From assembly GCA_027923505.1 (NCBI GenBank), contig BROI01000027.1:372001-423632 (forward strand): a stretch of 51,632 nucleotides of DNA, written 5' to 3'. Every line of letters begins with the position of its first letter. Within the stretch, counting starts at the first letter, position 1. Below the pieces are notes generated by a model. That model was not told the origin of the DNA. It did not search any database and worked only from the letters and a program-made list of their open reading frames with translations. The position numbers and the translations under genes were made by a program. This document shows, one piece after another, positions 312-41,129 of this stretch. Origin of the DNA: Mayamaea pseudoterrestris. Its lineage: Eukaryota.

Positions 312-1487
312 ATGTCGAGGGAGCTCAGTAACACACTGGTGGAGTGCAACATGTGGAAGCAGCAATGCAGCAAGCAACAGTGCGCCTTGGATCACTTGGA
401 CTGTGTCGCTCCCTCTAGCCTGGTGCAAGGAAATTGGCAGACTAATCAACATAGTCAATGGCGCCGCCAGGCGAACAATTCCTTGTCGCGTGGAATGTAC
501 CTGGATGATGCAAATGACCTCTCTGCTGTGCACCAGTTGGATGAGGAGGAGGCTGGTGACAATGACAGTGAACTGAACGATGAGCTCGACAATGAGCTCG
601 ACAATGAGCTCCATGACAATGTAGAGGAGGAGGATGGCACTGCCAATTATGTCTCTTTTGACAGTGAGGAGGAGATGGATGAGCAAGGTGAATTGACGGA
701 TGACCAAGAGGCGGATGGCGAAGAGACAGATGGCAAAGAGGCGGATGGCGAAGAGGTGGACGGCGAAGAGGCGGACGGCGAAGAGGCGGACGGCAAGGAG
801 GCGGACAGCAAAGAGGCGGACGGTGAAGAGGCGGACAGCAAAGAGGCGGACGGCGAAGAGGCAGACGGCGAAGAGGCGGACAGCAAAGAGGCGGATGGCG
901 AAGAGGCGGACAGTGAAGAGGCGGACAGCAAAGAGTTGGATGGCACAGAGGCGGATGGCGAAGAGGCAGACGGCGAAGAGTCGGATGGCGCAGAGGCGGA
1001 TAAAGAGTCGGACGAAGAGTCGGACGGAAAATTGGATGAAGAGTCAGACGAAAAATTGGATGAAGAGTCGGATGGCAAAGTGTTAGACGAAGAGACGGAT
1101 GTTGAAGAGATGGATGAAGAGGCAGCTGGCGTGGAGCTGCATGGTGAGGAGCTGCATGGCGAAGAGGCGGACGGCGAAGAGGCAGACGGCAAAGAGGCGG
1201 ACGGCGAAGAGTCGGACGGCGATGAGTCGGACGGCGAAGAGTCGGACGGTGAAGAGTCGGATGGCAAAGAGTCAGATGGCACAGAGTCGGATGGCGAAGT
1301 GTCAGACAAAGAGTCGGACGAAGAGTCGGACGAAGAGTCGGAGGGCAAGGAGCTGCATGGTGATAACGAGAATGCAGTTGGAATGGGTAGCATGGCTGCC
1401 AAGACAGAAGCCAATGGGTCTCTTTTGAATCAACACAAGCTCAAGGAGGCAACAAACTGTGGCAGCAGCAAAGGCAGCAACTGTTAG
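312..1487 (+). pseudogene. Acidic low-complexity protein (EEADG/ELDN repeats), copy 0; coiled-coil-like N-terminus continues upstream through an in-frame TGA near 273
   Basis: 391-aa ORF; paralogous to 11601-12563 and 21606-22336; upstream frame reads EVELVALRQDVVVQ*QQLIVLQQQLNNM. Confidence 0.6.
700..1345 (+). repeat. 15-nt coding minisatellite (GAAGAGGCGGACGGC = EEADG) with 12-nt variants
   Basis: Directly visible tandem units; explains overlapping stop-free ORFs in other frames. Confidence 0.9.
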
Positions 1488-1835: not shown

Positions 1836-2114
1836 TCACTCGTGCAAAGATAGGACAAGAGTCACCAGATTCGTTTTGTATGTGATGGATATGGCATAGT
1901 TACGACCATGGTGTTCAACATTGTGCAAGTTAGTATTTGGAATGTAAATGGTGCGACTAGCCTTGCCTTGCTCGGTTAACTTCCATTGGTGTCCAGTCAA
2001 CGAAATGACTTGCAATTCATTGCTTCCTAGCTTTGGCAGATATGCATAACACCTTCCCTTGAAGCCAACTTTGTCACCCTTCTGAAGAGCCTTATCTGCA
2101 GGGCAAACCCTCAT
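1836..2114 (-). pseudogene. Diverged paralog of the N-terminal domain of the TET/JBP-like ORF
   Basis: AYLPKLGS...LTG..W.LTE.GKASRTIYIPNT.L..VEHHGRNY shared with ORF 5522..6370. Confidence 0.75.
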
Positions 2115-2800: not shown

Positions 2801-3506
2801 GCATCCATTCTGTCATTTAAAGCCTATACGTAGTCTTTTTCATTGATTTAAAGCACAAGATCTACTAAGTAAGTCAAGTGGGTTCGAATGGTGTAATCAG
2901 TTTTGCTTCGTCATTGATATTGGTCCCGCCGCGGCACCTTTTGTGTTGAGTTCCATCCAGGCCTCGGACTGCTTGCATCCATTCTGTCATTTAAAGTCTA
3001 TACTCAGTCTTTTTCATTGATTTAAAACACCAGATCTACTAAGTAAGTCAAGCGGGTTCGAATGGTGTAATCAGTTTTGCTTCGTCATTGATATTGGTCC
3101 CGCCGCGGCACCTTTTGTGTTGAGTTCCATCCAGGCCTCGGACTGCTTGCTCCTTTCCGTCATTTAAAGTCTATACTCAGTCTTTTTCATTGATTTAAAA
3201 CACCAGATCTACTAAGTAAGTCAAGCGGGTTCGAATGGTGTAATCAGTTTTGCTTCGTCATTGATATTGGTCCCGCCGCGGCACCTTTTGTGTTGAGTTC
3301 CATCCAGGCCTCGGACTGCTTGCTCCTTTCCGTCATTTAAAGTCTATACTCAGTCTTTTTCATTGATTTAAAACACCAGATCTACTAAGTAAGTCAAGTG
3401 GGTTCTAACGGTGCGGTCGGTTTTGTCATCCGAGCCGTATTGGTCCCGCCGCGGCACCTTTTGTGTTGAGTTCCATCCAGGCCTCGGACTGCTCGCTCCA
3501 TTCCGT
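2801..3506. repeat. 173/174-bp tandem repeat, about 4 units (family R1)
   Basis: TCATTTAAAG at 2813, 2987, 3160, 3333; shared AGATCTACTAAGTAAGTCAAG core. Confidence 0.95.
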
Positions 3507-3761
3507 TGTTGCTATTGTGCTATAGGTCATTTTTGATGCTGATACCGTGCATACACTAGCTTTAATATGTAAAGGAGCTGATTGCCAAGTTTGGTTGAGT
3601 TCTGATGGGTATTTAAAAAGTGTGCACCCTCCAAGTGTCAATATTTTGTTGGTCTCCAGTATTTGCAGCATGATCATTCTCTAACAAATTATTGCTCTAG
3701 AATATTTTACAGACTGTAGACTATAATGTACAATGAAAGGAAGATTCAGCAACAAGTAATC

Positions 3762-4197
3762 AGATAGTGGTTTATAATGTTGGCGCGGGCTTCGACTCGG
3801 ATTTACTGCAGCAAGGAGAGAGGCTCTGCCACATTGGCAAGGGGAAATGCGACTGACCTGCGACCAGGATGGCTCCAAACTTGCAACCAGCACTTGTTGC
3901 AGCCAAGGGTTCCTGTCACTTATAGTGGTTTATAATGTTGGCGCGGGCTTTGACTCGGATTTACTGCAGGTTGAGTGGGAGACTGTGCTTTTGGCAACTG
4001 GCTGCAAACGAGTCGCCTGCAACTAGGATGGCTCCAAACTTGCAACCAGCACTTGTTGCAGCATTACTATATTTGCGGAAAGGGTTCCTGTCACTTATAG
4101 TGGTTTATAATGTTGGCGCGGGCTTTGGCGAATTTGCCGCAGGTTGAATGGGAGACTGTGCTCTTGGCAACTGCCTGCAAACGAGTCGCCTGCGACA
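3762..4197. repeat. Modular ~155-175-bp repeat, family R2 (ATAGTGGTTTATAATGTTGGCGCGGGC...)
   Basis: Three starts of the core within the interval; same family at 7816-8250 and 13965-16195. Confidence 0.85.
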
Positions 4198-4258
4198 TGA
4201 GCTAGCAACTACATTACAGCAAAATGTTGTAATTGCAACTAATAAACAGCTAGTACTT

Positions 4259-6295
4259 TTAAGTCTCCTCTGGCACAATCCATTCTCGGTAACTCCCACC
4301 TGCTCCCCAAGCAATGATGGTAGCATTGTCATCAAAGTAATGGACCAATCCAGTGTCCGGGTCCACAGCCACAGTTACAGCAGTATTATGTGCAATCTCT
4401 GCACCATAAAATTGCTGTGTCCAACCTTCCTTGAAACGAACAGCAATACCAATGCCATCATTCAAAAAGTACTGGTAAATAATCCAGGATGCAGGAAACA
4501 CACCAGAAACAGCGTAAGCACAATGTGTTGGAACTGAGAAGGTTTGTTCACCTTTCTTGTTCACCACTGTAAACATCTCTCGCATCTCCATCAGATACAA
4601 GTATATGTCATGCTTTGATGGATCGCGTTGCCACTCTTCAAGTACCTCATCAGCTCGGGCTTGAAACACTGGTAGTAACTTGTCATTTTGGTCCACATGG
4701 CTAGTATTCGCAAAGGACAACCACTTGGTTAGGTAGCCTGTTGTGAGAATCTTGATACTGTTATGGCCAAGTTCTTGAAGTTGCTTGCTACCCACAAGAG
4801 CTGCCTGCAAAAATTCATTGACACCCTCATCCAAAGCAAAAGCAGCTGCAACAGTTACATGTTCCAGCGCATTTACTGCAGCATTGCAAATGGGGACAAA
4901 GAAATCATGCCACTCTTGTCGGTAGTACTGATGCTCTGTGGCACAGAATTGCAAAGGCTTCCTGCCTGCCATTTTGGTGAGACGCCTACAAAAATATCCA
5001 TTTTGGCCAATGATATCAGAGGAACTTCATCCACCAAATATTATATTCCCGTATGTAAAGTCAATGAGGCCATAAAGCTGGGGATCCAGTTGAGTGAAAG
5101 CATTCTTGAGACGTCCCCATTCAACCACCTTGACACCATCTGGCGGAATGCTTGTTGGTCTTATATTGTGCTCTTCAAAATGTATGTCAGGCGTTTCATC
5201 TAGGTTGACGTCGCCAGCCTCACAAGTCTTGTCATTGGCAGCTTTCTTTCGGTCATTACCAAGTATAATTCGGACGCCGCCTGGAAACTCTTCTGTAACA
5301 TCAACCATCTGCAACTCAATAATATTATCCTTTGTTAACTTCCTGACCCATTTGTTATGCATTTTAGCAATGCGACGTTCCTCTTTCAACATGTTAAATT
5401 GTGTTTTCGTCAACAAACCAAACTTTCCAGCGTTCGGCTTGCCAAGCAGAGGGACAGCAAAAAGCATGGCCTCGGTCGTGCGCAATCCACCTTTAAGCTT
5501 GCAAACCTCCCGGCGGCGGGCTTATCCAACATGCACGCAAACCGTTGTGCACCTTGCATCACGAAACTGCTTGGTATGCTTGCCCAAGCAGTATCTGCGC
5601 TTCTTTGCTGGCTGTGCCTCTGGCTTGGAATCTTCCACTGTCGGCACTACGTAGGCCTTTGAATAGTCCGTCTTGACAGGCTCATTTTCATTTCGGGGAA
5701 TGACAGTCGTGAATACCTTATCTGGACCATAGGGATCCATTTGAATGCACTTGTCTTGGTGGTCAAGATTCGCAATAATATTGCCAATTTGGAGCGGCAC
5801 GCAAGGCAGTCCCGACAGGAGGTTGAGAAACTTGCAGGACTTGTGCTCCAAGTCACGATATGGCACTGTTTTGATGGTGAAGTATTGCTCAAATGCCGCA
5901 ATTGGAGCATCGGCTGGAAGGTTCGAGAATGGGTAAATAATTTGTCCATCTTGCTCGATGGCTTCACAGTGGCATTCCATGAAGGTGACGGTCGACTGTT
6001 GCCCATTGTAATGCGCGCTCATGAACACGCCAAAAAGATAGTCCTTACTGTGCTTGTACTTGATGACACATCCATAATTGCGACCATGGTGTTCAACATC
6101 ATCCAAGTCAGTATTTGGAATGTAAATGGTGCGACTAGCCTTGCCTTCTTCCGTCAAATTCCATCGGTATCCAGTCAATGGAACGGTTTCCAATGTGGCT
6201 GACCCCAGTTTTGGCAAATACGCGAGCGCTTCTCCCGTTCCAGTGGTTTTAGACAAGTCGCAGAAGAGCGCCTTTTTGGCAGCGCATGGAGGCAT
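4259..6295 (-). pseudogene. ~680-codon ORF with C-terminal TET/JBP-like Fe(II) dioxygenase domain, copy 1; two in-frame premature stops (5522, 5027)
   Basis: ORFs 5522..6370, 5027..5485 and 4259..4972 share one frame; copy 3 is open at both stops; motifs FANTSHVD (HxD), GIGIAVRF.EG...FYGAEIAHNT, AWGAGGSYREW. Confidence 0.6.
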
Positions 6296-6535
6296 GGTAG
6301 CAGGAGTAAAGGGTTGTTTCGCTTCATTTTGTGAGGCCGTGAGGTGCGACTTGGTGATGTGCGTACGCATCGGATGGAACGAGTTTTTGAATGGCGCTCG
6401 TTCCTTCCATTCGAGTCGTACCGGTACTCACTCTCTCGGCCGCAGTGAAACAATCAGCAGGCATGATGACCATGGAGGGAGAAAGGATGTTTATTGATTA
6501 ACGGCACGCCATCGAACAACATTTGTAGCAGAAGC

Positions 6536-7028
6536 ATGACGCAGCAGCAGCATTACCATTCCTTTGATCCTTCCTGGCTGTCGGTTCTTCTGCCTGACGA
6601 TCCCCTGGCATGCGACGCTCCGTACCTTTCCATTTTGTCCGAGAGCAATACATTTCAATGGTTGGCGCTACTGCTCAAGCATTTGAAGAGCGCCAAGCAT
6701 TACAAGCAATTTGGAATCTTGATGCGGGCGTATCGGCTGGAGCGTGGCGATTTTGAAGGCGATGACTGCGATGCAAATACGATGACGACTCCGAGTAATT
6801 TACCATTAACGCATGACAAGACGACGACGACGCGCCGCCGCTACCCCGACTCGTGGCTGCAGCAGACGCCCCTCCCCTCCAAACTCGACCATCAGCAGGT
6901 TTCATACGGCGAGCGCATTTACGATCACGTCAGCAAGACGCTGCGGTGGCGCTGCCTGCTGTGCGACTCTGGATGGATGGGCAATGGCAGCAAGGATGCG
7001 ATGGAGCACTGCGCGGGCCGCAACATGG
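6536..7028 (+). pseudogene. Zinc-finger-like ORF, copy 1, truncated by the duplication junction
   Basis: HLKSAKH and WRCLLC-x-HCAGR motifs; continues intact in copy 2. Confidence 0.6.
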
Positions 7029-7560
7029 GCATCCATTCTGTCATTTAAAGTCTATACTCAGTCTTTTTCATTGATTTAAAACACCAGATCTACTAAGTAA
7101 GTCAAGCGGGTTCGAATGGTGTAATCAGTTTTGCTTCGTCATTGATATTGGTCCCGCCGCGGCACCTTTTGTGTTGAGTTCCATCCAGGCCTCGGACTGC
7201 TTGCTCCTTTCCGTCATTTAAAGTCTATACTCAGTCTTTTTCATTGATTTAAAACACCAGATCTACTAAGTAAGTCAAGCGGGTTCGAATGGTGTAATCA
7301 GTTTTGCTTCGTCATTGATATTGGTCCCGCCGCGGCACCTTTTGTGTTGAGTTCCATCCAGGCCTCGGACTGCTTGCTCCTTTCCGTCATTTAAAGTCTA
7401 TACTCAGTCTTTTTCATTGATTTAAAACACCAGATCTACTAAGTAAGTCAAGTGGGTTCTAACGGTGCGGTCGGTTTTGTCATCCGAGCCGTATTGGTCC
7501 CGCCGCGGCACCTTTTGTGTTGAGTTCCATCCAGGCCTCGGACTGCTCGCTCCATTCCGT
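7029..7560. repeat. R1 173-bp tandem repeat, about 3 units
   Basis: Duplicate of 2975-3506. Confidence 0.95.
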
Positions 7561-7815
7561 TGTTGCTATTGTGCTATAGGTCATTTTTGATGCTGATACC
7601 GTGCATACACTAGCTTTAATATGTAAAGGAGCTGATTGCCAAGTTTGGTTGAGTTCTGATGGGTATTTAAAAAGTGTGCACCCTCCAAGTGTCAATATTT
7701 TGTTGGTCTCCAGTATTTGCAGCATGATCATTCTCTAACAAATTATTGCTCTAGAATATTTTACAGACTGTAGACTATAATGTACAATGAAAGGAAGATT
7801 CAGCAACAAGTAATC

Positions 7816-8250
7816 AGATAGTGGTTTATAATGTTGGCGCGGGCTTCGACTCGGATTTACTGCAGCAAGGAGAGAGGCTCTGCCACATTGGCAAGGGGAA
7901 ATGCGACTGACCTGCGACCAGGATGGCTCCAAACTTGCAACCAGCACTTGTTGCAGCCAAGGGTTCCTGTCACTTATAGTGGTTTATAATGTTGGCGCGG
8001 GCTTTGACTCGGATTTACTGCAGGTTGAGTGGGAGACTGTGCTTTTGGCAACTGGCTGCAAACGAGTCGCCTGCAACTAGGATGGCTCCAAACTTGCAAC
8101 CAGCACTTGTTGCAGCATTACTATATTTGCGGAAAGGGTTCCTGTCACTTATAGTGGTTTATAATGTTGGCGCGGGCTTTGGCGAATTTGCCGCAGGTTG
8201 AATGGGAGACTGTGCTCTTGGCAACTGCCTGCAAACGAGTCGCCTGCTAC
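7816..8250. repeat. R2 modular repeat
   Basis: Duplicate of 3762-4197. Confidence 0.85.
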
Positions 8251-8312
8251 ATGAGCTAGCAACTACATTACAGCAAAATGTTGTAATTGCAACTAATAAA
8301 CAGCTAGTACTT

Positions 8313-10349
8313 TTAAGTCTCCTCTGGCACAATCCATTCTCGGTAACTCCCACCTGCTCCCCAAGCAATGATGGTAGCATTGTCATCAAAGTAATGGACC
8401 AATCCAGTGTCCGGGTCCACAGCCACAGTTACAGCAGTATTATGTGCAATCTCTGCACCATAAAATTGCTGTGTCCAACCTTCCTTGAAACGAACAGCAA
8501 TACCAATGCCATCATTCAAAAAGTACTGGTAAATAATCCAGGATGCAGGAAACACACCAGAAACAGCGTAAGCACAATGTGTTGGAACTGAGAAGGTTTG
8601 TTCACCTTTCTTGTTCACCACTGTAAACATCTCTCGCATCTCCATCAGATACAAGTATATGTCATGCTTTGATGGATCGCGTTGCCACTCTTCAAGTACC
8701 TCATCAGCTCGGGCTTGAAACACTGGTAGTAACTTGTCATTTTGGTCCACATGGCTAGTATTCGCAAAGGACAACCACTTGGTTAGGTAGCCTGTTGTGA
8801 GAATCTTGATACTGTTATGGCCAAGTTCTTGAAGTTGCTTGCTACCCACAAGAGCTGCCTGCAAAAATTCATTGACACCCTCATCCAAAGCAAAAGCAGC
8901 TGCAACAGTTACATGTTCCAGCGCATTTACTGCAGCATTGCAAATGGGGACAAAGAAATCATGCCACTCTTGTCGGTAGTACTGATGCTCTGTGGCACAG
9001 AATTGCAAAGGCTTCCTGCCTGCCATTTTGGTGAGACGCCTACAAAAATATCCATTTTGGCCAATGATATCAGAGGAACTTCATCCACCAAATATTATAT
9101 TCCCGTATGTAAAGTCAATGAGGCCATAAAGCTGGGGATCCAGTTGAGTGAAAGCATTCTTGAGACGTCCCCATTCAACCACCTTGACACCATCTGGCGG
9201 AATGCTTGTTGGTCTTATATTGTGCTCTTCAAAATGTATGTCAGGCGTTTCATCTAGGTTGACGTCGCCAGCCTCACAAGTCTTGTCATTGGCAGCTTTC
9301 TTTCGGTCATTACCAAGTATAATTCGGACGCCGCCTGGAAACTCTTCTGTAACATCAACCATCTGCAACTCAATAATATTATCCTTTGTTAACTTCCTGA
9401 CCCATTTGTTATGCATTTTAGCAATGCGACGTTCCTCTTTCAACATGTTAAATTGTGTTTTCGTCAACAAACCAAACTTTCCAGCGTTCGGCTTGCCAAG
9501 CAGAGGGACAGCAAAAAGCATGGCCTCGGTCGTGCGCAATCCACCTTTAAGCTTGCAAACCTCCCGGCGGCGGGCTTATCCAACATGCACGCAAACCGTT
9601 GTGCACCTTGCATCACGAAACTGCTTGGTATGCTTGCCCAAGCAGTATCTGCGCTTCTTTGCTGGCTGTGCCTCTGGCTTGGAATCTTCCACTGTCGGCA
9701 CTACGTAGGCCTTTGAATAGTCCGTCTTGACAGGCTCATTTTCATTTCGGGGAATGACAGTCGTGAATACCTTATCTGGACCATAGGGATCCATTTGAAT
9801 GCACTTGTCTTGGTGGTCAAGATTCGCAATAATATTGCCAATTTGGAGCGGCACGCAAGGCAGTCCCGACAGGAGGTTGAGAAACTTGCAGGACTTGTGC
9901 TCCAAGTCACGATATGGCACTGTTTTGATGGTGAAGTATTGCTCAAATGCCGCAATTGGAGCATCGGCTGGAAGGTTCGAGAATGGGTAAATAATTTGTC
10001 CATCTTGCTCGATGGCTTCACAGTGGCATTCCATGAAGGTGACGGTCGACTGTTGCCCATTGTAATGCGCGCTCATGAACACGCCAAAAAGATAGTCCTT
10101 ACTGTGCTTGTACTTGATGACACATCCATAATTGCGACCATGGTGTTCAACATCATCCAAGTCAGTATTTGGAATGTAAATGGTGCGACTAGCCTTGCCT
10201 TCTTCCGTCAAATTCCATCGGTATCCAGTCAATGGAACGGTTTCCAATGTGGCTGACCCCAGTTTTGGCAAATACGCGAGCGCTTCTCCCGTTCCAGTGG
10301 TTTTAGACAAGTCGCAGAAGAGCGCCTTTTTGGCAGCGCATGGAGGCAT
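8313..10349 (-). pseudogene. TET/JBP-like ORF, copy 2 (same two stops as copy 1)
   Basis: Translations identical to copy 1 at +4054. Confidence 0.6.
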
Positions 10350-10589
10350 GGTAGCAGGAGTAAAGGGTTGTTTCGCTTCATTTTGTGAGGCCGTGAGGTG
10401 CGACTTGGTGATGTGCGTACGCATCGGATGGAACGAGTTTTTGAATGGCGCTCGTTCCTTCCATTCGAGTCGTACCGGTACTCACTCTCTCGGCCGCAGT
10501 GAAACAATCAGCAGGCATGATGACCATGGAGGGAGAAAGGATGTTTATTGATTAACGGCACGCCATCGAACAACATTTGTAGCAGAAGC

Positions 10590-12563
10590 ATGACGCAGCA
10601 GCAGCATTACCATTCCTTTGATCCTTCCTGGCTGTCGGTTCTTCTGCCTGACGATCCCCTGGCATGCGACGCTCCGTACCTTTCCATTTTGTCCGAGAGC
10701 AATACATTTCAATGGTTGGCGCTACTGCTCAAGCATTTGAAGAGCGCCAAGCATTACAAGCGATATGGACTCTTGATGCGGGCGTATCGGCTGGAGCGCG
10801 GCGATTTTGAAGGCGATGACTGCGATGCAAATACGATGACGACTCCGAGTAATTTACCATTAACGCATGACAAGACGACGACGACGCGCCGCCGCTACCC
10901 CGACTCGTGGCTGCAGCAGACGCCCCTCCCCTCCAAACTCGACCATCAGCAGGTTTCATACGGCGAGCGCATTTACGATCACGTCAGCAAGACGCTGCGG
11001 TGGCGCTGCCTGCTGTGCGACTCTGGATGGATGGGTAACAGCGGCACGGATGCAATGGAACACTGCGCGGGCCGCAACATGGCGCGAATTACGAGCAGTT
11101 TCGGGCCGCATATTTGCTACATGCGGAGCGAGAGTCAAGCGGCGGCGCGAGAAGCTGCGGAGCAAGAAGTCGCCACAAAACAAGCTGCTGAGCGAGAACA
11201 AGCTGCGGAACGACAGGCTGTGGAGCGACTGCAGCAGCAGCGACTGCAGCAGCAACAGCAAGACATACTAAAGCGACAGCATGCGCCAATGGAGCCAGCG
11301 GCGGCAAAGGAGGCTTTGCAAAAGGTGCAGCAGGAGCGACATGACAATATACATGGCCAGTAGGAGACGCAGACGCAGCCGCAGCAAACGCAAATGCAAC
11401 AATTTGCGAAACCGCAGCAAAATCGTTTGCAAATGGCAAGAACTAGTGCAAAGCAGCAATCTACTACATGTTTGGGTATCGTTTCATCTCCTCCAATAGG
11501 CAGCGTTGCGCCAGACTTTGAACCGCACTGGCTGCAGCATCTGCTCAAGGGCGTCTCCGCGTTTAGCGGCGTGCCGTATGGACAAATCAAAATGATACAG
11601 TCTAGCCTGGCGCAAGGAAATTGGTGGACTAATCAACATCGTCAATGGTGCCGCCAGGCAAACAATTCCTTGCTGCATGGAATGTACCTGGATGACGCAA
11701 ATGACCTCTCTGCTGTGCACCAGTTGGATGAGGAGGAGGCTGGTGACAATGACAGTGAACTCGACAATGAGCTTGACGATGAGCTCCACAATGAGCTCAA
11801 CAATGAGCTCGACAATGAGCTTGACAATGAGCTCGACAATGAGCTTGACAATGAGCTCGACAATGAGCTTGACAATGAGCTCCATGACAATGTAGAGGAG
11901 GAGGATGGCACTGCCAATTATGTCTCTTTTGACAGTGAGGAGGAGATGGATGAGCAAGGTGAATTGAGGGATGACCAAGAGGCGGATGGCAAAGAGGTGG
12001 ATGGTGAAGATGCGGACGCCGAAGAGGTGGACGGCGAAGAGGCAGACGGCGAAGAGGCGGATGGTGAAGAGTTGGATGGCGCAGAGGCGGACAGCGAAGA
12101 GGCGGATGGCGACGAGTTGGATGGCTCAGAGGGGGATAAAGAATTGGACGAAGAGTCGGACGAAAAATCGGATGAAGAGTCGGACGAAAAGTTGAATGAA
12201 GAGTTGGATGGCAAAGTGTTAGATGAAGAGATGGATGCCGAAGTGATGGATGAAGAGGCAGCTGGCGTGGAGCTGCATGGCAAGGAGCTGCATGGCGAAA
12301 TGGCGGACGGCGAAGAGGCGGACGGCAAAGAGTCAGACGGCGAAGAGTCGGATGGCACAGAGTCGGATGGTGAAGAGTCAGACAAAGAGTCCGACGAAGA
12401 GTCGGACGAAGAGTCGGACAGCAAGGAGCTGCATGGCGACAACGAGAATGCAGTTGGAATGGGTAGCATGGCTGCCAAGACAGAAGCCAATGGGTCTCTT
12501 TTGAATCAACACAAGCTCAAGGAGGCAACAAACTGTGGCAGCAGCAAAGGCAGCAACTGTTAG
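10590..12563 (+). pseudogene. ~650-codon ORF: U1/matrin-like zinc-finger remnants, Q/A-rich coiled coil, acidic repeat tail; single in-frame TAG at 11361
   Basis: ORFs 10548..11363 and 11394..12563 are in one frame, separated by one stop in a Gln-rich tract; divergent from the TET-like ORF. Confidence 0.6.
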
Positions 12564-12821: not shown

Positions 12822-13330
12822 GTTTTCGTTGATTTAAAGCACTAGATCTACTAAGTAAGTCAAGCGGGTTCTAATGGTGCGATTAGTTTTGCCCTCGAAT
12901 GAGTATTGGTCCTGTCGTGGCCCCTTTTGTGTTGAGTTCCATCCAATCGACCCACCACCCCCCACCCCGCATCACAAATCATCACGTTTTCATTGATTTA
13001 AAGTACTATATCTACTAAGTAAGTCAAGCGGGTTCTAACGGTGTAATCAGTTTTGTCATCGGAGCCGTATTGGTCCCGTCGTGGCCCCTTTTGTGTTGAG
13101 TTCCATCCAATCGACCCACCACCCACCACCCCGCATCACAAATCATCACTTTTGCCTTTTAAAGCTTATAATAGACCGTTTTCAGTGATTTAAAGCACTA
13201 TATCTACTAAGTAAGTCAAGCGGGTTCTAACGGTTTAATCAGTTTTGTCATCGGAGCCGTATTGGTCCGGTCGTGGCCCCTTTTGTGTTGAGTTCCATCC
13301 AGGCCTCGGACTGCTCGTTCCATTCCGTTG
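12822..13330. repeat. Diverged R1 repeats, about 3 units, interleaved with a 40-bp CCACCACCC-rich module
   Basis: ATCTACTAAGTAAGTCAAGCGGGTTCTAA core three times. Confidence 0.85.
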
Positions 13331-13579
13331 TTGCTATTGTGCTATAGGTTATTTTTGATGCTGATACCGTGCATACACCTGCTTTAATATGTAATGGAGC
13401 TGATTGCCAAGTTTGGTTGAGTTCTGATGGGTATTTAAAAAGTGCGAGCCCTCCAAGTGTCAATATTTTGTTGGCAGCAACTTGTCGCACCAATCAAAGG
13501 CATTGTTTCAGTATCCAGTCTTTGCAGCATGATCATTCTCTAACAAATTATTGCTCTAGAATACTTTTACAGACTGTAG

Positions 13580-13964: not shown

Positions 13965-16195
13965 GGGGCTTTGCCCCTTTGGCAAGGGGAAATCGAATCG
14001 CCTGCGACCACCCAACACTTGCTGCAGCCTTTACTATATATGCGGGAAGGGTTCCTGGTGCTAATAGTGGTTTATATGGCTGGCGCAGGCCTTTGGCGCG
14101 AATTTGCCGCAGGTTGAGTGGGAGACTGTGCTTTTGGCAACTGGCTGCAAATGACTTGCCTGCAACTAGGATGGCTCAAACCCAGCAACCAACACTTGCT
14201 GCAGCCTTTACTATATATGCGAGAAAAGTTCATGGTGCTAATAGTGGTTTATAAGGTTGGCGCGGGCTTCGACTCGGATTTACTGCAGCAAGGAGAGAGG
14301 CTCTGCCACATTGGCAAGGGGAAATGTGACTGACCTGCGACCAGGATGGCTCCAAACTTGCAACCAGCACTTGTTGCAGCCAAGGGTTCCTGTCACTTAT
14401 AGTGGTTTATAATGTTGGCGCGGGCTTCGACTCGGATTTACTGCAGGTTGAGTGGGAGACTGTGCTTTTGGCAACTGGCTGCAAACGAGTCGCCTGCGAC
14501 TAGGATGGCTCCAAACTTGCAACCAGCACTTGTTGCAGCATTACTATATATGCGGAAAGGGTTCCTGTCACTTATAGTGGTGTATAATGTTGGCGCGGGC
14601 TTTGGCGAATTTGCCGCAGGTTGAATGGGAGACTGTGCTCTTGGCACCTGCCTGCAAACGAGTCGCCTGCTACATGAGCTAGCAACTACATTACACCAAA
14701 ATATTGTAATTGCAACTAATAAACAGCTAGTACTTTTATGTCTCCTCTGGCACAATCCATTCTCGGTAACTCCCACCTGCTCCCCAAGCAATGATGGTAG
14801 CATTGTCATCAAAGTAATGGACCAATCCAGTGTCCGGGTCCACAGCCACAGTTACAGCAGTATTATGTGCAATCTCTGCACCATAAAATTGCTGTGTCCA
14901 ACCTTCCTTGAAACGAACAGCAATACCAATGCCATCATACAAAAAGTACTGGTATATAATCCAGGATGCAGGAAACGCACCAGAAACAGTGTAAGCACAA
15001 TGTGTTGGAACTGAGAAGGTTTGTTCACCTTTCTTGTTCACCACTGTAAACATCTCTCGCATCTCCATCAGATACAAGTATATGTCATGCTTTGATGGAT
15101 CGCGTTGCCACTCTTCAAGTACCTCGTTCCTGTCACTTATAGTGGTTTATAATGTTGGCGCGGGCTTCAACTCGGATTTACTGCAGGTTGAGTGGGAGAC
15201 TGTGCTTTTGGCAACTGGCTGCAAACGAGTCGCCTGCGACTAGGATGGCTCCAAACTTGCAACCAGCACTTGTTGCAGCATTACTATATTTGCGGAAAGG
15301 GTTCCTGTCACTTATAGTGGTTGATAATGTTGGCGCGGGCTTTGGCGAATTTGCCGCAGGTTGAATGGGAGACTGTGCTCTTGGCAACTGCCTGCAAACG
15401 AGTCGCCTGCTACATGAGCTAGCAACTACATTACACCAAAATATTGTAATTGCAACTAATAAACAGCTATTACTTTTATGTCTCCTCGACTCAGATTTAC
15501 TGCAGCAAGGAGAGAGGCTCTGCCACATTGGCAATGGGAAATGCAAGTGACCTGCGACCAGGAGGGCTCAAACCCAGCAACCAACACTTGCTGCAGCCTG
15601 TACTATATATGCGGGAAGGGTTCTTGGTATTTATAGTGGTTTATATGGCTGGCGCGGTCCTCGACTTGAATTTCAGCGGGCAAGTCAATATTGGGCGCTT
15701 TCTTGTCGACAATATTGACAAGCGGCGGCCATCCACCATCAACTGCTTTGATCTGAGCATAAAGATTGTCAGCGTGTTCAATTAGCTGGGAGATATGAAC
15801 GTTTAACTGAACATGCGAGAGCATCAAGTTGGTATTAACGCTGACGTGCGTCTTGTTGCCTCTCGAGAGAGAGTACGTGACGGAATCACCACCAGTCGTT
15901 TCAAAAGTGTGAAGGATGAGCTCGCCCCACGTGAACATTGGCATAGCCTTTACTATATATGCGGGAAGCGTTCCTGGTGTTAATAGTGGTTTATAAGGTT
16001 GGCGCGGGCTTCGACTCAGATTTACTGCAGCAAGGAGAGAGGCTCTGCCACATTGGCAATGGGAAATGCGACTGACCTGCGACCAGGAGGGCTCAAACCC
16101 AGCAACCAACACTTGCTGCAGCCTTTACTATATATGCGGGAAGGGTTCTTGGTAGTTATAGTGGTTTATATGGCTGGCGCGGTCTTTGACTCGAC
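13965..16195. repeat. Expanded R2 array interleaved with duplicated gene fragments
   Basis: About 9 R2 cores, with inserts at ~14673-15125, ~15410-15485 and ~15670-15940. Confidence 0.85.
14736..15125 (-). pseudogene. Partial copy of the TET-like C-terminus (lacks the HxD motif)
   Basis: 113-aa ORF nearly identical to the end of 4259..4972; breaks into R2 at ~15126. Confidence 0.8.
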
Positions 16196-16848: not shown

Positions 16849-18888
16849 TTATGTCTCCTTTGACATGTTCCATTCTCAGTAACTCACACCTGCTCACCAT
16901 GCAATGATGGTAGCATCGGCATCAAGAAAATGGACCAATCCAGTGACCTGGTCCACAGCCACAGTTACAGCAGTATTATGTGCAATCTCTGCACCATAAA
17001 ATTGCTGTGTCCAACCTTCCTTGAAACGAACAGCAATACCAATGCCATCATACAAAAAGTACTGGTATATAATCCAGGATGCAGGAAAGGCACCAGAAAC
17101 AGCATAAGCACAATGTGTTGGAACTGAGAAGTTTTGTTTAACTGTCCCATTCTTGTTCAACACTGTAAACATCTCTCGCATCTTTAACAGATACAAGTAT
17201 ATGTCACGCTTTGATGGATCGCGTCGCCACTCTTCAAGTACCTTGTCAGCTCGGGCTCAAAACACTGGTAGTAATTTGTCATTTTTGTCCTCATGGCTAG
17301 TATTCGCAAAGGACAACCACTCAGTTAGGTAGCCTGTTGTGAGAATCTTGATACTGTTATGGCCAAGTGCTTGAAGTTGCTTGCTGCCCACGAGAACTGC
17401 CTGCAAAAATTCATTGACACCCTCATCCAAAGCAAAAGCAGCTGCAACAGTTACATGTTCCAGCGCATTTACTGCAGCATTGCAAATGGGGACAAAGAAA
17501 TCATGCCACTCTTGTCGGTAGTACTGATGCTCTGTGGCACAGAATTGCAAGGGCTTCCTGCCTGCTATGTTGGTGAAACGCCTACAAAAATATCCATTTT
17601 AGCCAATGATATCAGAGGAATTTTGTCCACCAAATATTGTTGCCCCATATGTAAAGTCAATGAGGCCATAAAGCTGGGGATCTAGTTGAGTGAAAGCATT
17701 CTTGAGACGTCCCCATTCAACCACCTTGACACCATCCGGCGGAATGCTTGTTGGTCTTATATTGTGCTCTTCACAATGTGTGTCAGGCGTTTCATCTAGG
17801 TTGACATCGCCAGCCTCACAAGCCTTGTTGTTGGCAGCTTTATTTTGGTCATTAGCAAGTACAATTTGGACGCCGCCTGGAAACTCTTCTGTAACATCAA
17901 CCATCTGCAACTCAATAATATTATCCTTTGCCAACTTCCTGACCCATTTGTTATGCTTTTCAGTGTTGCGAAGGTCCTGTTTCAACAACTTTAAGTCTGT
18001 TTTCGTCAACAAACCATACTTTCCAGCTTTCCGCTTGCCAAGCAGAGGGACAGCAAAAAGCTTGGCCTCGGTCGTGCGCAATCCACCTTTAATCTTGCAA
18101 CCCTCCCGGCAGCGGGCTTCTTCAACATGCATGCAAACCGTTGTGCACCTTGCATCACAAAACCGCTTAGTATGCTTGCCTGAGCAGTTTCTGCGCTTCT
18201 TTGCTGGCTGTGCCTCTGGCTTGGAATCTTCCGCTGTCGGCACTACGTAGGCCTTTGAATAGTCCGTCTTGACAGGCTCCTTTATATTTTGGGGAATGAC
18301 AGTCATGAATACCTTATCTGGACCATTGGGATCCATTTGAACGCACTTGTCTTGGTGGTCAAGATTCGCAATAATATTGCCAATTTGGAGCGGCGCACAA
18401 GGCAGTCCTGACAGGAGGTTGAGAAACTTGCAGGACGTGTGCTCCAAGTCATGATATGGCACTGTCCTGATGGTGAAGTATTGCTCAAATGCCGTAATTG
18501 GAGCATTGGCTGGAAGGACTGAGAATGGGTAAATGATGCGTCCATCTTGCTCGATGGCTTCACAGTGGCATTCCATGAAGGTGACGCTCAACTCTCACCC
18601 ATTGTAATGCGCGCTCATGAACACGCCAAACAGATAGTCCTCACTGTGCTTGAACTTGACGACACATCCATAGTTGCAACCGTGCTTGTCGGGATTTAAA
18701 TTGGTGTTGGGCACGTAAATGGTGCGCGACTTCATGCCTTCTTCCGTCAAATTCCATCATTATCCTGTCAATCAAATAGTTTCCAATGTGGCTGACCCCA
18801 GTTTTGGCATATACGCGAGCGCGTCTCCCGTTCCAGTGGTTTTGGACCAGTCGCAGAAGAGCGCCTTGTGGGCAGTGCATGGAGGCAT
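16849..18888 (-). pseudogene. TET/JBP-like ORF, copy 3 (more diverged, different premature stops)
   Basis: ORFs 17599..18591, 17257..17550 and 16894..17196 align with copy 1; FANTSHED and AHNT retained. Confidence 0.6.
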
Positions 18889-19180
18889 GGTAATGGTGAG
18901 CAGGAGTATAAGAGTTGTTTCACGTCGTTTTGTGAGGCCGCGAGGTGCGTTGATTGGTGATGTGCGTGCTTACGCATCGGATGGAACGAGTTTGAATGGC
19001 GCTCGTTCATTCCATTTGAGTCGTACTGGTACTCACCGTCTCGGTCGCAACGAAACATCAGCAGGCATGATGACCATGGAGGGAGAAAGGATGTTTATTG
19101 ATTAACGGCACACCGTCAAACTACATTTGTAGCAGAAGCATGACGCAGCAGCATCATCATTCGTTTGATCCTACCTGGCT

Positions 19181-21605: not shown

Positions 21606-22336
21606 ATGTCGAGGGAGCTCAACAACATCCTGGTGGAGCACATCATGTGGAATCAGCGATGCAGCAAGCAACAGCACACCTTGGATCAATTGGACTGCAT
21701 TGCTCCCTCTGGTCTGGAGCAAGGAAATTGGTGGTGCTGCCAGGCAAATGAGTCCATGTCACGTGAGCTGTACCTGTATCACACAAATGGCCTCTCTGAC
21801 ATGCGCGAGTTGGATGAGGAGGAGGCTGGTGACAGTGACAATGACAGCAACCTTGAGCTCAATAATGAGCTCCATGACAATAATGTAGAGGAGGAGGATG
21901 GCACCACCAGTCATGTCTCTTTTGACAGTGAGGAGGAGATGGATGAGCACAGCAAATTGATGGATGGTGAAGAGTCGGACAAAGAATACGGATGGCAAGG
22001 AGCTGCATGGCAAAGAGACAGACGGCAAAGAGTTGGACAAAGAGACGGACAAAGAAGAGTCAGACAAAGAGGCGGATGGTGAAGAGTTGGATGAAAGGCG
22101 GATGGCGAGGACCTGCATTGCAACAAGACGGATGGCGAAGAGACAGATGAAGAGTTGGATGATGAGTTGGATGAAGAATTGGACAAAGAGCAGGTGGCGA
22201 GGAGCTGCATGGCAACGAGGTGGATCACAATGAGAATGCAGTTGCAATGGGAAGCATGGCCGCCAAGACGGAAGCAATTGGGACTGTGAATCATCACCCA
22301 ACAAACTGTGGCAGCAGCAAAGGCGGCTACTGTTAG
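21606..22336 (+). pseudogene. Frameshifted, degraded copy of the acidic-repeat ORF
   Basis: MSRELNNILVE...SFDSEEEMDE aligns with 312..1487. Confidence 0.75.
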
Positions 22337-34802: not shown

Positions 34803-37800
34803 CTCCCCTCGGGTACGCTGCTCGTCGTAGCCGCATTCTTGTCCTTCACAATCGCATACGATGTATCGCCGCGCCAAAACAATACTGGCTTGAGCAATGG
34901 CATCGCATCACAGTACGGCAGGTACTTCGTCAGTACGTCCGCAATGTTCTCCTTTCCGTCAATCTTCACAAACTTGATAATCCCCGCAGCAACTGCCCAA
35001 CGAACACGATGGTAGGCCAACGCATTGTGTCGCTTGGACAATGTCAAACTTGGGATTGTAGATTGCGTAATCACTGCTTGGTTGTCTCCGTACATCCAGG
35101 CAGACTTCTCCAATGGTACGCCCATAGCCATGAGCGATGCACGTAGAGAAATGCTGATATCCGTTCCACTCTTTGCTACGCCGAATTCCGATCCGAAGGT
35201 CGCAGTCTCGACTGTAGCCTGGAGTTTGCAATGCCAGTCAACAGGCGTCTGGTTGACAAATGACAAAACTCCTTCCAATGACTTGCCTGTCACCATGCAA
35301 TGCATGAGACACGCATCCTCGAAAGTTGATGTTCGCACAGTCACACCCTTTGGCGGTGGGTAGACGTCCAACATCTCATCAACTCCGTCCTTCCCGTAAA
35401 CGCTGCGCTCCCAATCTTGTTCCTCCATGGTGCCGAAGTGCTCCTCGTTGGCTGGCCACCTGTACGGAAACGGATTGCTGCGTCCGGTAACTCTCGCAAA
35501 TATCCACAGACTCGCTTCACCCGCTGCAGGTGTCCCTTGCGCGGCTCCACACGGAATCGCGACAGACTCACAACTGCAACGGCAATGTCAAATCGTCCCA
35601 AAGTAATCGCCCACTGAAGTGCTCCGACTAGAGACTGGTAAATCTTCTTCTCTCGGTCGTTCAGTAGCTCGCTTTGGTCAAGTTCTGGATGGTCGTCTTT
35701 GTCGATTGGTGATGAGTACTTCTTCGGAGGACCTTCAAACAAACGCTCGTACTGCGCCAAGAGTTTCGCAACGTAGGTCTTGGCCGACCAGTAAAGGGTT
35801 CCGTCAGGGTCTCGTCCAAAGTCACCGCCGAGATGATACTCGGGATGTCCAACACCTTTGAGCTTAAACTTGTACTTCTCCTCTAGCATCTTGAAGAACG
35901 CTGCTGGATCGTCTGAAATATTCAACAGATCGTCGACCCATACACAGAGGTAGTCGTAGCTGTCGCCGGCGTCCTTGATCCACAGATCGGAATCGCAATA
36001 GGACGGCTTCCACCCTTCCGCAAGTAGGGCGTCGGCTAAGCGTTCATGAAATCGTGCTCCGCTCGTTCGCAATCCGTACAAAGCCTTGATGATGACCAGG
36101 ATGTGTCCTTCGCGCTCCCCGAACTTGGGGCCTCCAACGAAGTATACCTTCTCCTTGGTGAACGCTTCGAGGTAAGCATTCCCAATGTCACCGACCATGC
36201 ACTTCTTGCCGTTCGCTTCTCCAATGACGAGAGCTAGACGCATTGCCTTCAATGAGATAACACTGGAGTATGCATCGTCGTTGTCTTTCGTCATGTGGCC
36301 GCCTGCAACGAGACGTGCCTTGTATCGCAAATTGTGCTTGACATCGTACACAAAATGGACTCGGATCTTTTGGTAACCAGTTGGTGGTGTTGTGGTGGAA
36401 CTCGGACCAAGGTCTTGAAACGTCTTGTACTCGTCCAGGTTCGCAAGCTCCACGCCTTCCGCATCCGTCCACTTCGTGTGCCCTGCAGCTTCTTGTAGAC
36501 GACGCGCTTCCTTCCAGTCTCGGGGTACTTGGACTCCAAACTTGTAGCGCGGTCCGTTCTTCTGCTGCTCCATTCGGGCGGTCGCCACCTTGCGCGCAAC
36601 CTTCTTGGCGTTCCGGGCCCATCGATTCAACGATGTCCATCCGTCCTTGTCGAGAAGATTATGCTTTTGCGCGTAGGCTGCCACTGATACTTTGTCGCTT
36701 TCGATCATTGCGTTGAGAGGCTCCCAAGTCTTGGATCCATCGTCCCATTGTACAAGGACGTTCCACTTGGAGTGCTTCCAGTTCTTCGACTTGCTCGTCA
36801 GCGGACCCTGATGGTCTAGAATCTCCTTGAAGAACCATTTACGCTCAGGATTCGCCATGTCTTGGTTCACTTCGGCCTCGTAGAGATCGGAAACCTCGAC
36901 ATAGGACATGACTTCGTCCGCTTCGCCGTTACCAAGTTTCAGCATCATTTTAATGTTCTGATGGTTCTGGGCGTCGCGATTGTTCAGCTTGCTCATGACG
37001 GTCGCTCGAACTTCTTGCCCGTCGTCCGTCTTCATGAGAAACGACTTGCCGATAAGTTCATCGGGTGCATACTTCGGGAGTTTGCGCCACGGATTGATGT
37101 TCTTCTTCTTCGGCTTGTCGTCGTCGTCATCGGCAGGGTCGTCATCGGCAGGATTAGGATCTAGCTCCCCGTCGGTCATATCGTCATCTTCCGGGTATTC
37201 CACCGTCTCGACCAAAGGGGTATCGTCTTCGTCAGGAATGAAAGAATCATCGTCTCTGCTGTCGGCGTCGGTAATCTTCTTGATCATTTCCGGCATAAGG
37301 ATCTCGCCACCTAGACCAGGTACGGTATAGAGACGCGGCTCCCCTTCTTTCATGACTGGGGAAGCAGGTGCCGGTACGCGAAGGTTCAAAAATTTTGGGT
37401 CATTTCGGGGTAAGCAAACCGATCGCGTCATGATCTCGTGTGTCTCGCAATCGCAGATGAAGTACGTCAGGTCGTCTCCGCACGTCGTGTTGGGACCAAG
37501 CCAGTACGCCGCGCGCTGGCGGGTACCCGGGGCCTCGACATCCTTGACAAAGTAGTTGACAATTTCAAACCAACGAAAATGCAAATACTTCGACACGTCG
37601 GGGACTTGCCCAGTGATAAACTCGATGGGAGACTTGCCGTCCAAGGCAGGATGCGACAAATGACGGTACATCTCGGTCTGAAAGAGTAAAGCGCGTAGCC
37701 AGAAGCATGCCGGAGTGCCCGTTCGGTCCATAAGTCGTTCATGACTTTCCTTTACGTGCCCGATGATGCGCTCGGCTGGGTTTTGATTCTGATAGTACGG

Positions 37801-40634
37801 CTCCGATGTATGACGACGGCGAATCATGAACTCGCGCATTACTTCGTCAAACTCGGCACTCATCGCTTCTTTCGCATTATCCGAGAAGACTTCCAACGGA
37901 GCTCCAAACTCGCGGATGAAATCACGGAATCGTTTCGGTACGTCACCTTTCGTCCGCATGGGATACACGACAATGATCTGACTGCGACAACCATAGAATA
38001 GCTGCACGCATGTGCACCCTGCATGTCCGTCGATATGATCATCCATGGCTGGTTCGTCGAAGAACATGGTGTCATGGGCCACTCGATCATCTAGACGGTA
38101 GACGTTCAGGAATCGGCTCTTTCGATGCATTCGTGGGGGGTATCGGCGCTCGTGCATGTTGAACTGCGTGCTATGGCGCAAAGTATCCTTGATCGTCTGC
38201 GCCGGGTACCATGCAAAGTTCGGCAGCAATGCGTCGATATCAGGTTTCTTTGGCAGGATAGACTTGTAGGGCTGATAGACGAGATCCGCATTGTACTTCT
38301 GTACGACGGCACAAACATTCAGCTCCTTCTCGGTGTAAACAGGTTGATTGTCGTGTCCGAGATTCGTATAAGTCACGTTGCTCTGACGATGGGTGCGATT
38401 CCGCGTACGCGAACGTGTCACGCGCGTGAAGCCCTCTTCGTCGTCACTGTCTTCGTCGTCTTCGTCGCGCGACAACAAGTCCGGTACGTCGTCCTCGTCG
38501 TCATCGTCATCCGAAGAGTCATAGTCGTCGTCCTCGGTCGGCTCGACGTCAAACTCATTCGGATCCCAAGGCCCATCGAAGGTCATCATGACCCGAGGTA
38601 AGGTGTGAAGCTCATGCGCCGACACTGGAAACATTGGCAAGGTCGCCATGCCACTTTCCATTCCGAGCATAAACTTGTATCCGTCTGGCGTTTCGATTCG
38701 TAACTTGCCACCAAAGTTGTAATGCTTGTCGTTGACATGAAGTCCGAAGGCTTCCATCTGCATACTCGAATGAATCGTCTTGCCGGTTCCAGAATATGCG
38801 TAATTATGGAACTCGCCGACGACCCAACCCTTGGTGCTCTTAAGCTTGGCGACTGCTGTGACGGTAGACAGGTCCGGAAGTTTGAGACCACCGACTCCAG
38901 TGACTTCAATCTTGTGGAACTTGTCCTCGGTAAGGATGCGGCCGTCCGCTCCCCATACTCCGCCACTCGCGCCGCGATCGACAGTCGACGCTGAATGCTT
39001 ATCCAAGTCAATGCTCGCGACTTTGTACTTGCGACTCTGAGCAATATTTGCTCCCCGAGTCGTAGTCGTGGGCTGGTCTGGACCTAAGAAACTTCGCATC
39101 GCTGAGCCACGGCTGGTGTTGTTCACACGCTCGGTCGCCGCACTCGCCGTCGTTGCCGCTGATGAAGTGGCTGCGACGTTTGCGTTGCGTGTTGTACTCG
39201 TCGTCTGCGTGGTGCCTGCCTGTGTTGCTGATGTCGAACCACCTGCAGCACTGGCCGCTCGACTCGTACCACGGCGTTCAAACACTTCATGTTGCTGATC
39301 GCGGGTAAGGAGTCGCCACGTGTTTGGTGGAATCGTCGCATTCACGTCGCTGGGAATTTCGATCGTCTTCGTGTCGGCATAGCTGCGAACATACGAACGA
39401 GTATCTCCCCGACCGCGGCCGCCGCCGCCGCCTCGTCCCGTGCTCAAGTCGCCGCGACCACCGCCCCCCTGATTGGATTGCTGATTGTTGCTGCTACTTG
39501 GCGTAGACTGGGAATTGTTCGCGCTTGCCTTCTTCGTCTTCTCCTTCTCTTTCTTGGTCTGCTCAGATTGGTTCGCCTGACGCTTCTCGGTCTCCTTGAT
39601 GCCACGACGATTGTCAGATTGACGTGCGACGTCGTTCAGGAGGTTCCAAAACTGGGTGTACGCCATCGGGTTGCCGGTCTTGGACTCTTCGATCAGCGCC
39701 ATGTTCACCGCCGCTGCCATATCCGCATGGCGGAAAACCGCGCGCTCCAAAATCTGACGCTTCGTGCTTGCTGTAAGTAGCTCGGTTTCCTCGGCGTAGT
39801 CATTGTAGTTCTCTTCCTTGCTGGACCACTGGATAAGCCAATTGACGAGAGACTTGGCGTAACCCGCGTCGAGGGTGAAATTGCGCCATTCGTCTTCGGC
39901 CGAACGTAGATCCAACTTGCGCGCCATCCCGTCGAGGAATGTCGCCTCCAACTCTGCAATGCACGCTGAGGCATTCGCGCTGTCGATGTGCTTGCGGACA
40001 ATGAGCTTGCTCTGCGGTGTCTTGCAGGTATACTCGAGCGCCGCTAAAAGCTTCGAACACTGATACTGATACTCGGCGAATTCGGGCTCGAGTGCAGCTG
40101 GTGCCTTGAACTCGTCGTCCCAAAAGTAGCCAAGTCGCTCGCTTCGCATGCGGTTCTTGAAGGCCCGCCAGTAGGAGCAGAACTTGCGATCGTTCTTGAG
40201 CTCCAGCATGGTCTTCAGATCCAGCTTGATGTCGTGTCGCTTCGTCGTGGTGTCGTTGCCTCCGATAACGCTGAAGTCTCCGAAACTGCGGTTGCCTGCG
40301 GTTGGTGACCCCGGTGCTACTGGGAGGTCTCGGCTCGTAATGTGGTCTTTCTCCAAGTCTTGCCATTGCGCAGTCGTCCGACGTTGCTCGTGAATCCAAC
40401 TCATGAGCTTGCGCAATCGGCTTGTTCGTATCGTCGACCTATGGTACTGGGTCTTAATGTCGTCACGTCTTGTTCCAACAACTCGGCCATCGCCTCCGCA
40501 GTCGTGAGTTCTTCGGATTCAAAGCATACTGCGGTAGGCTCGTTTGGATCCCAAGTTGCGGACGCTGCAAGCCACGGAATGTCAAAGACTTTACCGACGG
40601 CACGCTTGTAGGTCGTTACATCAATTGTCGCCAT
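34757..40634 (-). CDS. Near-intact B-family gag-pol (gag, PR, IN, chromodomain-like, RT, RNase H) with single-base frameshifts near 40416 and 35460
   Basis: 1691-aa ORF with TVDRGASGG, SDNAKE, SEPYYQNQNPAE, VQWDDGSKTWEPL, KALYGL, VWVDD; flanking 77-aa and 223-aa ORFs supply the two ends. Confidence 0.92.
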
Positions 40635-40731: not shown

Positions 40732-41126
40732 TAACACCGATGACGATTTCGCAGTCAACGTCATACCTCCAAAAAGCTCCGATACAGGGTCCTTGGCCAT
40801 GGTCTGTACAGCTCTTGATGGAGATGGCTCATCGAATAGTCTTGCGCTCGCCACTACACGAATACGACTGCACTCTCGTCGCAAACTTGTAGTTCTATAT
40901 TGTGAGCTTATCGCTACATCGCTACATTGACCACTCGGAAGATCATCCGATCAATCCGTTTCTTTCAATCACATTACATCAGTTGTAATCAGTCGTTCCA
41001 TTCATACAACGCATCCACACGACGGTTGCGCACTTTCTTCATTCACATGTCACATACGACAGCTGCGGACTCGACACAAGCTAATTAGTGTTTGGGCTCT
41101 TGACTTTGCCGCTCTGCGACTTGTCA
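40732..41126 (-). repeat. B-family LTR c (duplicate of LTR d)
   Basis: Shares all private variants of 46199-46593. Confidence 0.93.
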
Positions 41127-41129
41127 CTC

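Follow-up and report, generated by a model that had tools for sequence, protein, structure and literature searches.

The closest described systems are the TET/JBP Fe(II) dioxygenases, in which the arginine that holds the distal carboxylate of 2-oxoglutarate (2OG) is located exactly six residues before the aromatic residue that stacks on the base. This spacing is given in two reports, for TET2 (R1896/Y1902), NgTET1 (R289/F295) and CMD1 (R410/F416; PMC7854593) and for CcTet (R385/F391; PMC11040006). CcTet needs 2OG, and its activity is abolished by R385A (PMC11040006). For phage TETs, PMC8256090 describes the beta-VIII arginine as always conserved, and Burke et al. there equate a second, upstream invariant arginine with TET2 R1261, which stacks on the base and forms a pair with the proximal carboxylate of 2OG (PMC4678852). 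The distance from this upstream arginine to the HxD motif is 121 residues in TET2 and CcTet and 101 in CMD1, and the residue five positions after the HxD histidine (His+5) contacts N4 of the base (D234 in NgTET1, D350 in CMD1, N1387 in TET2; PMC7854593 and, for CcTet, PMC11040006). In CMD1, W358 blocks the C5-carboxylate site (PMC7854593).

Here, we analyzed 51,632 nucleotides of DNA from the diatom Mayamaea pseudoterrestris (GenBank assembly GCA_027923505.1, contig BROI01000027.1, positions 372,001 to 423,632, forward strand; hereafter the window), in which an earlier note had described a TET-like domain that appeared to lack the 2OG-binding arginine. The explanation that we favor, and hold as a whole with moderate confidence, is that a lineage-expanded gene is present in the window as three decayed full-length copies and two fragments; that the C-terminal ~300 aa of this gene form an Fe(II) dioxygenase domain of the TET/JBP kind, though a very divergent one; and that the family to which it belongs lost the arginine, with 2OG most likely kept as the co-substrate of its intact members.

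Gene copies and their surroundings

The locus is a pseudogene cluster in repeat-rich DNA (Table 1). The dioxygenase-like domain occupies the C-terminal ~310 codons of copy 1, whose frame is interrupted on translation by two in-frame stops (TAA and TGA). An open frame of 237 aa occupies the minus strand at 4259-4972, with the C-terminal end FYGAEIAHNTAVTVAVDPDTGLVHYFDDNATIIAWGAGGSYREWIVPEET before its stop codon; minus strand 4259-4400 reads AEIAHNTAVTVAVDPDTGLVHYFDDNATIIAWGAGG, with HVD upstream. Copy 2 is the second unit of a tandem duplication with a repeat spacing of 4054 bp. The C-terminus of copy 3 reads FLDADATIIAW before the stop, and HED is present where copy 1 has HVD. Translation confirmed the motifs that the earlier note had read by eye, with N-ATIIA-W in copies 1 and 2 and D-ATIIA-W in copy 3, and placed a further N-ATIIA-W in the fragment at 14736-15125, which that note did not list. 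HVD and AHNT are present in copies 1 and 2, as that note had seen for HxD and the distal histidine, and copy 3 has HED; the fragment retains DDNATIIAW and AHNT and has no HxD.

The annotated 610-aa gene model P0001 was 100% identical over the last ORF of copy 1 by word-index search. P0002, a 726-aa Mayamaea paralogue, is 58% identical and apparently intact. Word-index searches for homologues returned just two Mayamaea proteins plus two others.

Table 1. Positions of the TET-like copies, their motifs and stops, and neighboring features in the window
Feature	Positions	Strand	Description
Copy 1, TET-like gene	4259..6370	minus	703 codons and terminal stop in one continuous frame
N287-A-T-I-I-A-W293, copy 1	4307..4327	minus	N287, 4325-4327; W293, 4307-4309
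Distal His H266, copy 1	4388..4390	minus	conserved in 85/86
H163-V-D165-Q-N-D168, copy 1	4682..4699	minus	predicted HxD metal ligands (HVD 4691-4699) and Asp at His+5
In-frame TGA	5027..5029	minus	copies 1 and 2, at R53 column; CAA (Gln) in copy 3
In-frame TAA	5522..5524	minus	copies 1 and 2; GAA in copy 3; P0002 reads through
Copy 2	8313..10424	minus	100% identical to copy 1 over 2112 nt
Copy 3	16849..18967	minus	90.8% nt identity to copy 1; five in-frame stops
5'-truncated fragment	14736..15125	minus	390 nt, last 129 codons and stop; 98.7% identical to copy 1
Paralogue 5' fragment	1875..2114	minus	80 aa, 89% identical to P0002 N-terminus
Tandem 4054-bp units	3764..11871		98-100% identity; unit contains TET-like pseudogene and 173-bp satellite repeats
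Divergent ORF of 4054-bp unit	6494..7048; 10548..11363	plus	longer in second unit
Satellite arrays (family D2)	2801..3620; 7029..7674; 13143..13442		~173-bp period; flank TET-like copies
Acidic-repeat ORFs	312..1487; 11394..12563; 21606..22082		long acidic Asp/Glu-rich 5-residue repeats, 15-nt period; no Pfam match
Copia-type ORFs	35341..40416; 41081..45883	minus	near-identical, 1691 and 1600 aa; RVT_2, E 1.8e-20
Third copia-type element	24187..29520	plus	more broken
IQ-motif ORF	48460..51630	plus	open-ended, >1057 aa, almost wholly IQ calmodulin-binding motifs (Pfam IQ, E 1.3e-65)

Each acidic-repeat ORF lies downstream of a plus-strand ORF that adjoins a TET-like copy, and the two may together form one gene. 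The copia-type elements are young LTR retrotransposons adjoining the pseudogene cluster. No transposase was found beside the TET-like copies, the flanking retroelements being separate copia-type elements.

The TET-like domain and its conserved residues

Residues are numbered by the translation P0152 (window 4262-5185, minus strand), with X at the TGA. To assess conservation, we aligned copy 1 with 85 homologues (86 rows) chosen by query coverage from the 150 listed. A HMMER scan with P0002 returned at least 170 representative proteins at E ≤ 1e-3, almost all of which match residues ~445-722. The N-terminal ~220 aa of the Mayamaea proteins (P0002 residues 1-225; window 5636-6295) have no relatives among the 150 matches listed, and for this region ESM Atlas features pointed only weakly to Duc1 (score 0.87).

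For structure prediction, a 75-row alignment headed by P0152 (TGA read as X) was used as input for AlphaFold (AF2), which returned a model of the domain with a pLDDT of 86.7 and a pTM of 0.85; the single-sequence AF2 model of the 237-aa ORF had a pLDDT of 41. The modeled domain is a double-stranded beta-helix whose fold is closest to solved TET enzymes, with CcTet and CMD1 as the best Foldseek matches in the PDB (E 3e-4), in support of the TET-like assignment made in the earlier note. The top match in a viral structure library was gp8 of Synechococcus phage S-CBWM1, a true Tet_JBP protein (Pfam, E 4.3e-18). By ESM Atlas features, 25 of 30 matches fell in clusters with some Tet_JBP members (score 0.95).

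Sequence profiles gave no such match. None of 156 proteins (5 window ORFs, P0001, P0002 and 149 homologues) scored above a Pfam cut-off; the best Tet_JBP (PF12851) score, 17.7 bits for P0033, fell short of the cut-off of 34.9, and a match of one protein to the "Tet-like" 2OG-FeII_Oxy_6 family (E 0.11) was likewise below the cut-off. Searches of PDB sequences with the family profile or with P0033 (hmmsearch) retrieved no TET, and PHROGs gave no match. Profile-profile alignment with hhalign was performed against a comparison set of 7 phage Tet_JBP proteins (probability 0.4-0.6%, not significant) and against S-CBWM1 gp8 (0.2%, not significant). Similarity to AlkB with an R-x-N-x-T-x-R strand was not found either, the hhalign probability against AlkB being 0.4%. 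Among 1208 prokaryote genomes, there were 0 Tet_JBP matches over the cut-off.

The HxD...H iron triad is complete in copies 1 and 2, and copy 3 carries HED. Across the 86 rows, H163 and G294 are invariant (86/86), D165 and H266 are each kept in 85, D168 and W293 in 84 and T268 in 83. By its sequence conservation, we judge the N-ATIIA-W motif not to be due to chance. D168 takes the His+5 position, and by analogy with the TET enzymes above it would contact N4 of the base.

Upstream of the triad, 110 residues before the HxD histidine, lies R53, an arginine kept in 72 of the 73 homologues with coverage there; in the phage Tet_JBP alignment (n=7), the only invariant arginine besides that of beta-VIII lies 113 residues before the HxD histidine of the phage proteins. 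Because this distance is close in phage, TET2, CcTet and CMD1, R53 is probably the counterpart of TET2 R1261, an assignment made by spacing, on which R68 (R67 and K6 of 85 homologues) fits nearly as well; R68 is otherwise the weaker candidate. Two further arginines, R89 and R250, show fair conservation.

The last strand, the missing arginine and the co-substrate

If W293 is the stacking aromatic, as its spacing and the ends of the structural alignments suggest, the place of the beta-VIII arginine is N287. The window copies have N or D here, and the last core strand carries no conserved arginine at the six-residue spacing from the aromatic, so the absence reported in the earlier note holds at the spacing-matched place. 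The phage Tet_JBP alignment (n=7) carries an invariant R254-x-S256-x-V-x-Y260 with the same six-residue spacing, and its profile aligns to the TET2 stretch RISLVFY (E 1.4e-5). In the 85 homologues (gaps disregarded), the residue at W-6 is D in 21, N in 15, S in 12, K in 9, G in 8 and R in 4, with others making up the rest, and that at W-4 is N in 18, S in 10, T in 9, L in 9, R in 8 and K in 2, again with others; Lys or Arg at one or other of these positions, which share a strand face, is seen in 22 of 85. The apparently intact P0002 has Lys at W-6, which weakens the co-substrate inference of the earlier note. After H266, the most basic column is 280 (K28 and R16 of 86, 51%). From these alignments, the lack of a conserved beta-VIII arginine is a property of the whole divergent family and not a decay product of the window copies.

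This register of the last strand is drawn from spacing, conservation and the ends of structural alignments, and is not certain. With W293 as the stacking aromatic, the structural alignment ended at 1919-1920 in TET2 where 1917 was predicted, at 432 in CMD1 (predicted 431) and at 399 in CcTet (predicted 402), with NgTET1 as a misfit (320 against 310). A different register, in which the true beta-VIII is G-[KR]-V-[YHF]-[YLF] at columns 279-283, with FAWG as an additional strand at the C-terminus, we consider unlikely, though it deserves some weight. A local hhalign piece sets phage R254, S256, V258 and Y260 on columns 275, 279, 281 and 283, but at a probability of 0.4-0.6% and in a run that misplaces HxD. 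The shift would bring the distance from the distal histidine to the aromatic to 15, as in CcTet and NgTET1 (usually 15-16), would better fit the usual His-to-Arg distance of 9-15, and would place V281, conserved in 70/86, in the strand; against this, only 43 of 86 rows have an aromatic at column 283 and W293 is kept in 84, the supposed strand would enclose an Asn/Asp-Gly turn, no other element comes near FAWG in conservation, and the alignment ends agree with W293 for TET2, CMD1 and CcTet, if not for NgTET1. The arginine place would then be column 275, which is likewise unconserved (R8 and K10 of 86).

Under the favored register, a working arrangement can be proposed for intact members. H163, D165 and H266 would hold iron; D168 may read the exocyclic amine of a flipped pyrimidine; W293 would stack under the base; and R53, in the manner of TET2 R1261, may stack over the base and pair with the co-substrate at its proximal carboxylate. 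The conserved beta-VIII arginine, anchor of the distal (C5) carboxylate of 2OG in TET2, NgTET1 and CcTet, has been lost from the family as a whole. Intact members would most likely still use 2OG, held elsewhere in the pocket, with N160, the polar residue at W-4, R68 and R250 as candidates. In 2OG oxygenases such as JmjC and FIH, the C5 carboxylate is held by a Lys or Tyr from other strands.

The earlier note had instead proposed a non-2OG co-substrate and an unusual base. That intact members, like CMD1, take a co-substrate other than 2OG (ascorbate or some other small acid) and produce an unusual DNA base is in our view distinctly unlikely. Neither candidate place for the beta-VIII arginine has a basic residue conserved family-wide, and the loss of CcTet activity in R385A together with the constancy of the arginine in phage TETs, both in the published account and in our alignment of 7, speaks for this reading; yet Lys or Arg occupies W-6 or W-4 in 22 of 85 members, the conserved R53, R68 and R250 might reach the pocket, and JmjC and FIH offer a precedent for a C5 carboxylate held from other strands. 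CMD1 bears on the question in two ways. It shows that a TET fold is able to switch co-substrate (PMC7854593), but its description in the earlier note as lacking the canonical 2OG site was imprecise, since both aligned arginines (R244 and R410) are kept in CMD1 (PMC7854593), and loss of the arginine is accordingly not a known signature of such a switch. Somewhat less probable again is the most far-reaching reading, by which a Pfam-undetected Fe(II) family with a TET fold (at least 170 representative clusters, apparently diatom-centered) dropped the 2OG-anchoring arginine, uses a different co-substrate and marks diatom DNA with a modified base not known so far, with the Mayamaea copies as recent casualties of family turnover.

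Decay of the copies and comparison with known systems

The earlier note had treated the locus as encoding an enzyme, which the copies do not bear out. Two stops interrupt copies 1 and 2 and five interrupt copy 3, and the TGA of copies 1 and 2 falls exactly on the codon of R53, the best-conserved arginine of the family. Over 622 compared codons, copies 1 and 3 differ by 102 non-synonymous and 27 synonymous codon differences, a pattern such as unconstrained drift would give. In P0001 both stops are bypassed by a pair of in-frame GT-AG "introns", 105 and 102 nt long. P0002 has each segment as conserved coding sequence and copy 3 keeps both open, and because the second holds the family columns R53, G60, N62, Y64, G66 and R68, the spliced product would be without part of its core. 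With splicing around the stops judged from homology, every full-length copy in the window is a pseudogene, P0001 models one of them with false introns that keep its frame open, and copy 1 would give no working enzyme whether read through or spliced; with copies 1-3 as pseudogenes, there is therefore no working enzyme at this locus. That copies 1 and 2 are working genes, with real in-frame introns that excise both stops as in P0001, is very improbable, for although each skipped segment has a length divisible by three and allows GT...AG boundaries, the two are conserved as coding sequence in P0002 and uninterrupted in copy 3, the second comprises the core columns just listed, and the substitutions between copies 1 and 3 look unconstrained.

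Contigs from public DNA runs contain both the window letters and copy-3-like letters at 5027-5029 and 5522-5524, and their summed depth is uneven across the gene, which fits several diverged genomic copies. The supplements of the Mayamaea genome paper (PMC9724779) mention neither locus tag.

For the window itself the finding is a modest one, of dead copies and of a public gene model (P0001) built on false introns. Diatoms methylate cytosine. Should intact members of the family prove active, diatom DNA methylation would gain its missing oxidative branch, and the family would offer a natural test of how far the 2OG site can be eroded in a TET fold. No account of a diatom TET/JBP enzyme came up in full-text literature searches.

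Compared with human TET2 (PDB 4NM6 and 5D9Y), to which identity is about 10%, the diatom family lacks the Cys-rich zinc region and has nothing conserved in place of R1896; it has a Gly after the aromatic and no conserved His at aromatic+2, and its stretch from the distal histidine to the aromatic is 4-10 residues longer. CMD1 (PDB 7CY4-7CY8) keeps R410, which points away (PMC7854593), whereas the diatom family lacks the arginine in sequence. Fungi have transposon-borne TET/JBP genes (CcTet; KDZ and other elements); beside the diatom copies no transposase was found.

In phages, the Tet_JBP gene of Pelagibacter phage HTVC112P adjoins genes for a ParB-like nuclease and an FkbM methyltransferase, and that of Methylophilales phage Melnitz-3 adjoins a gene for an HhaI-type cytosine methylase; these neighbors fit the published ParB-dependent and 5mC-linked subclasses. 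With respect to the phage Tet_JBP proteins (5-methylpyrimidine dioxygenases, such as S-CBWM1 gp8), the diatom family differs in scoring below the Pfam cut-off, in a profile-profile probability of 0.4% and in the R-x-S-x-V-x-Y strand, which is invariant in phage; the order of the triad is the same, and the upstream arginine, invariant in phage and nearly so in the diatom family, lies at a like distance before the HxD histidine, 113 residues in phage and 110 in the diatom family.
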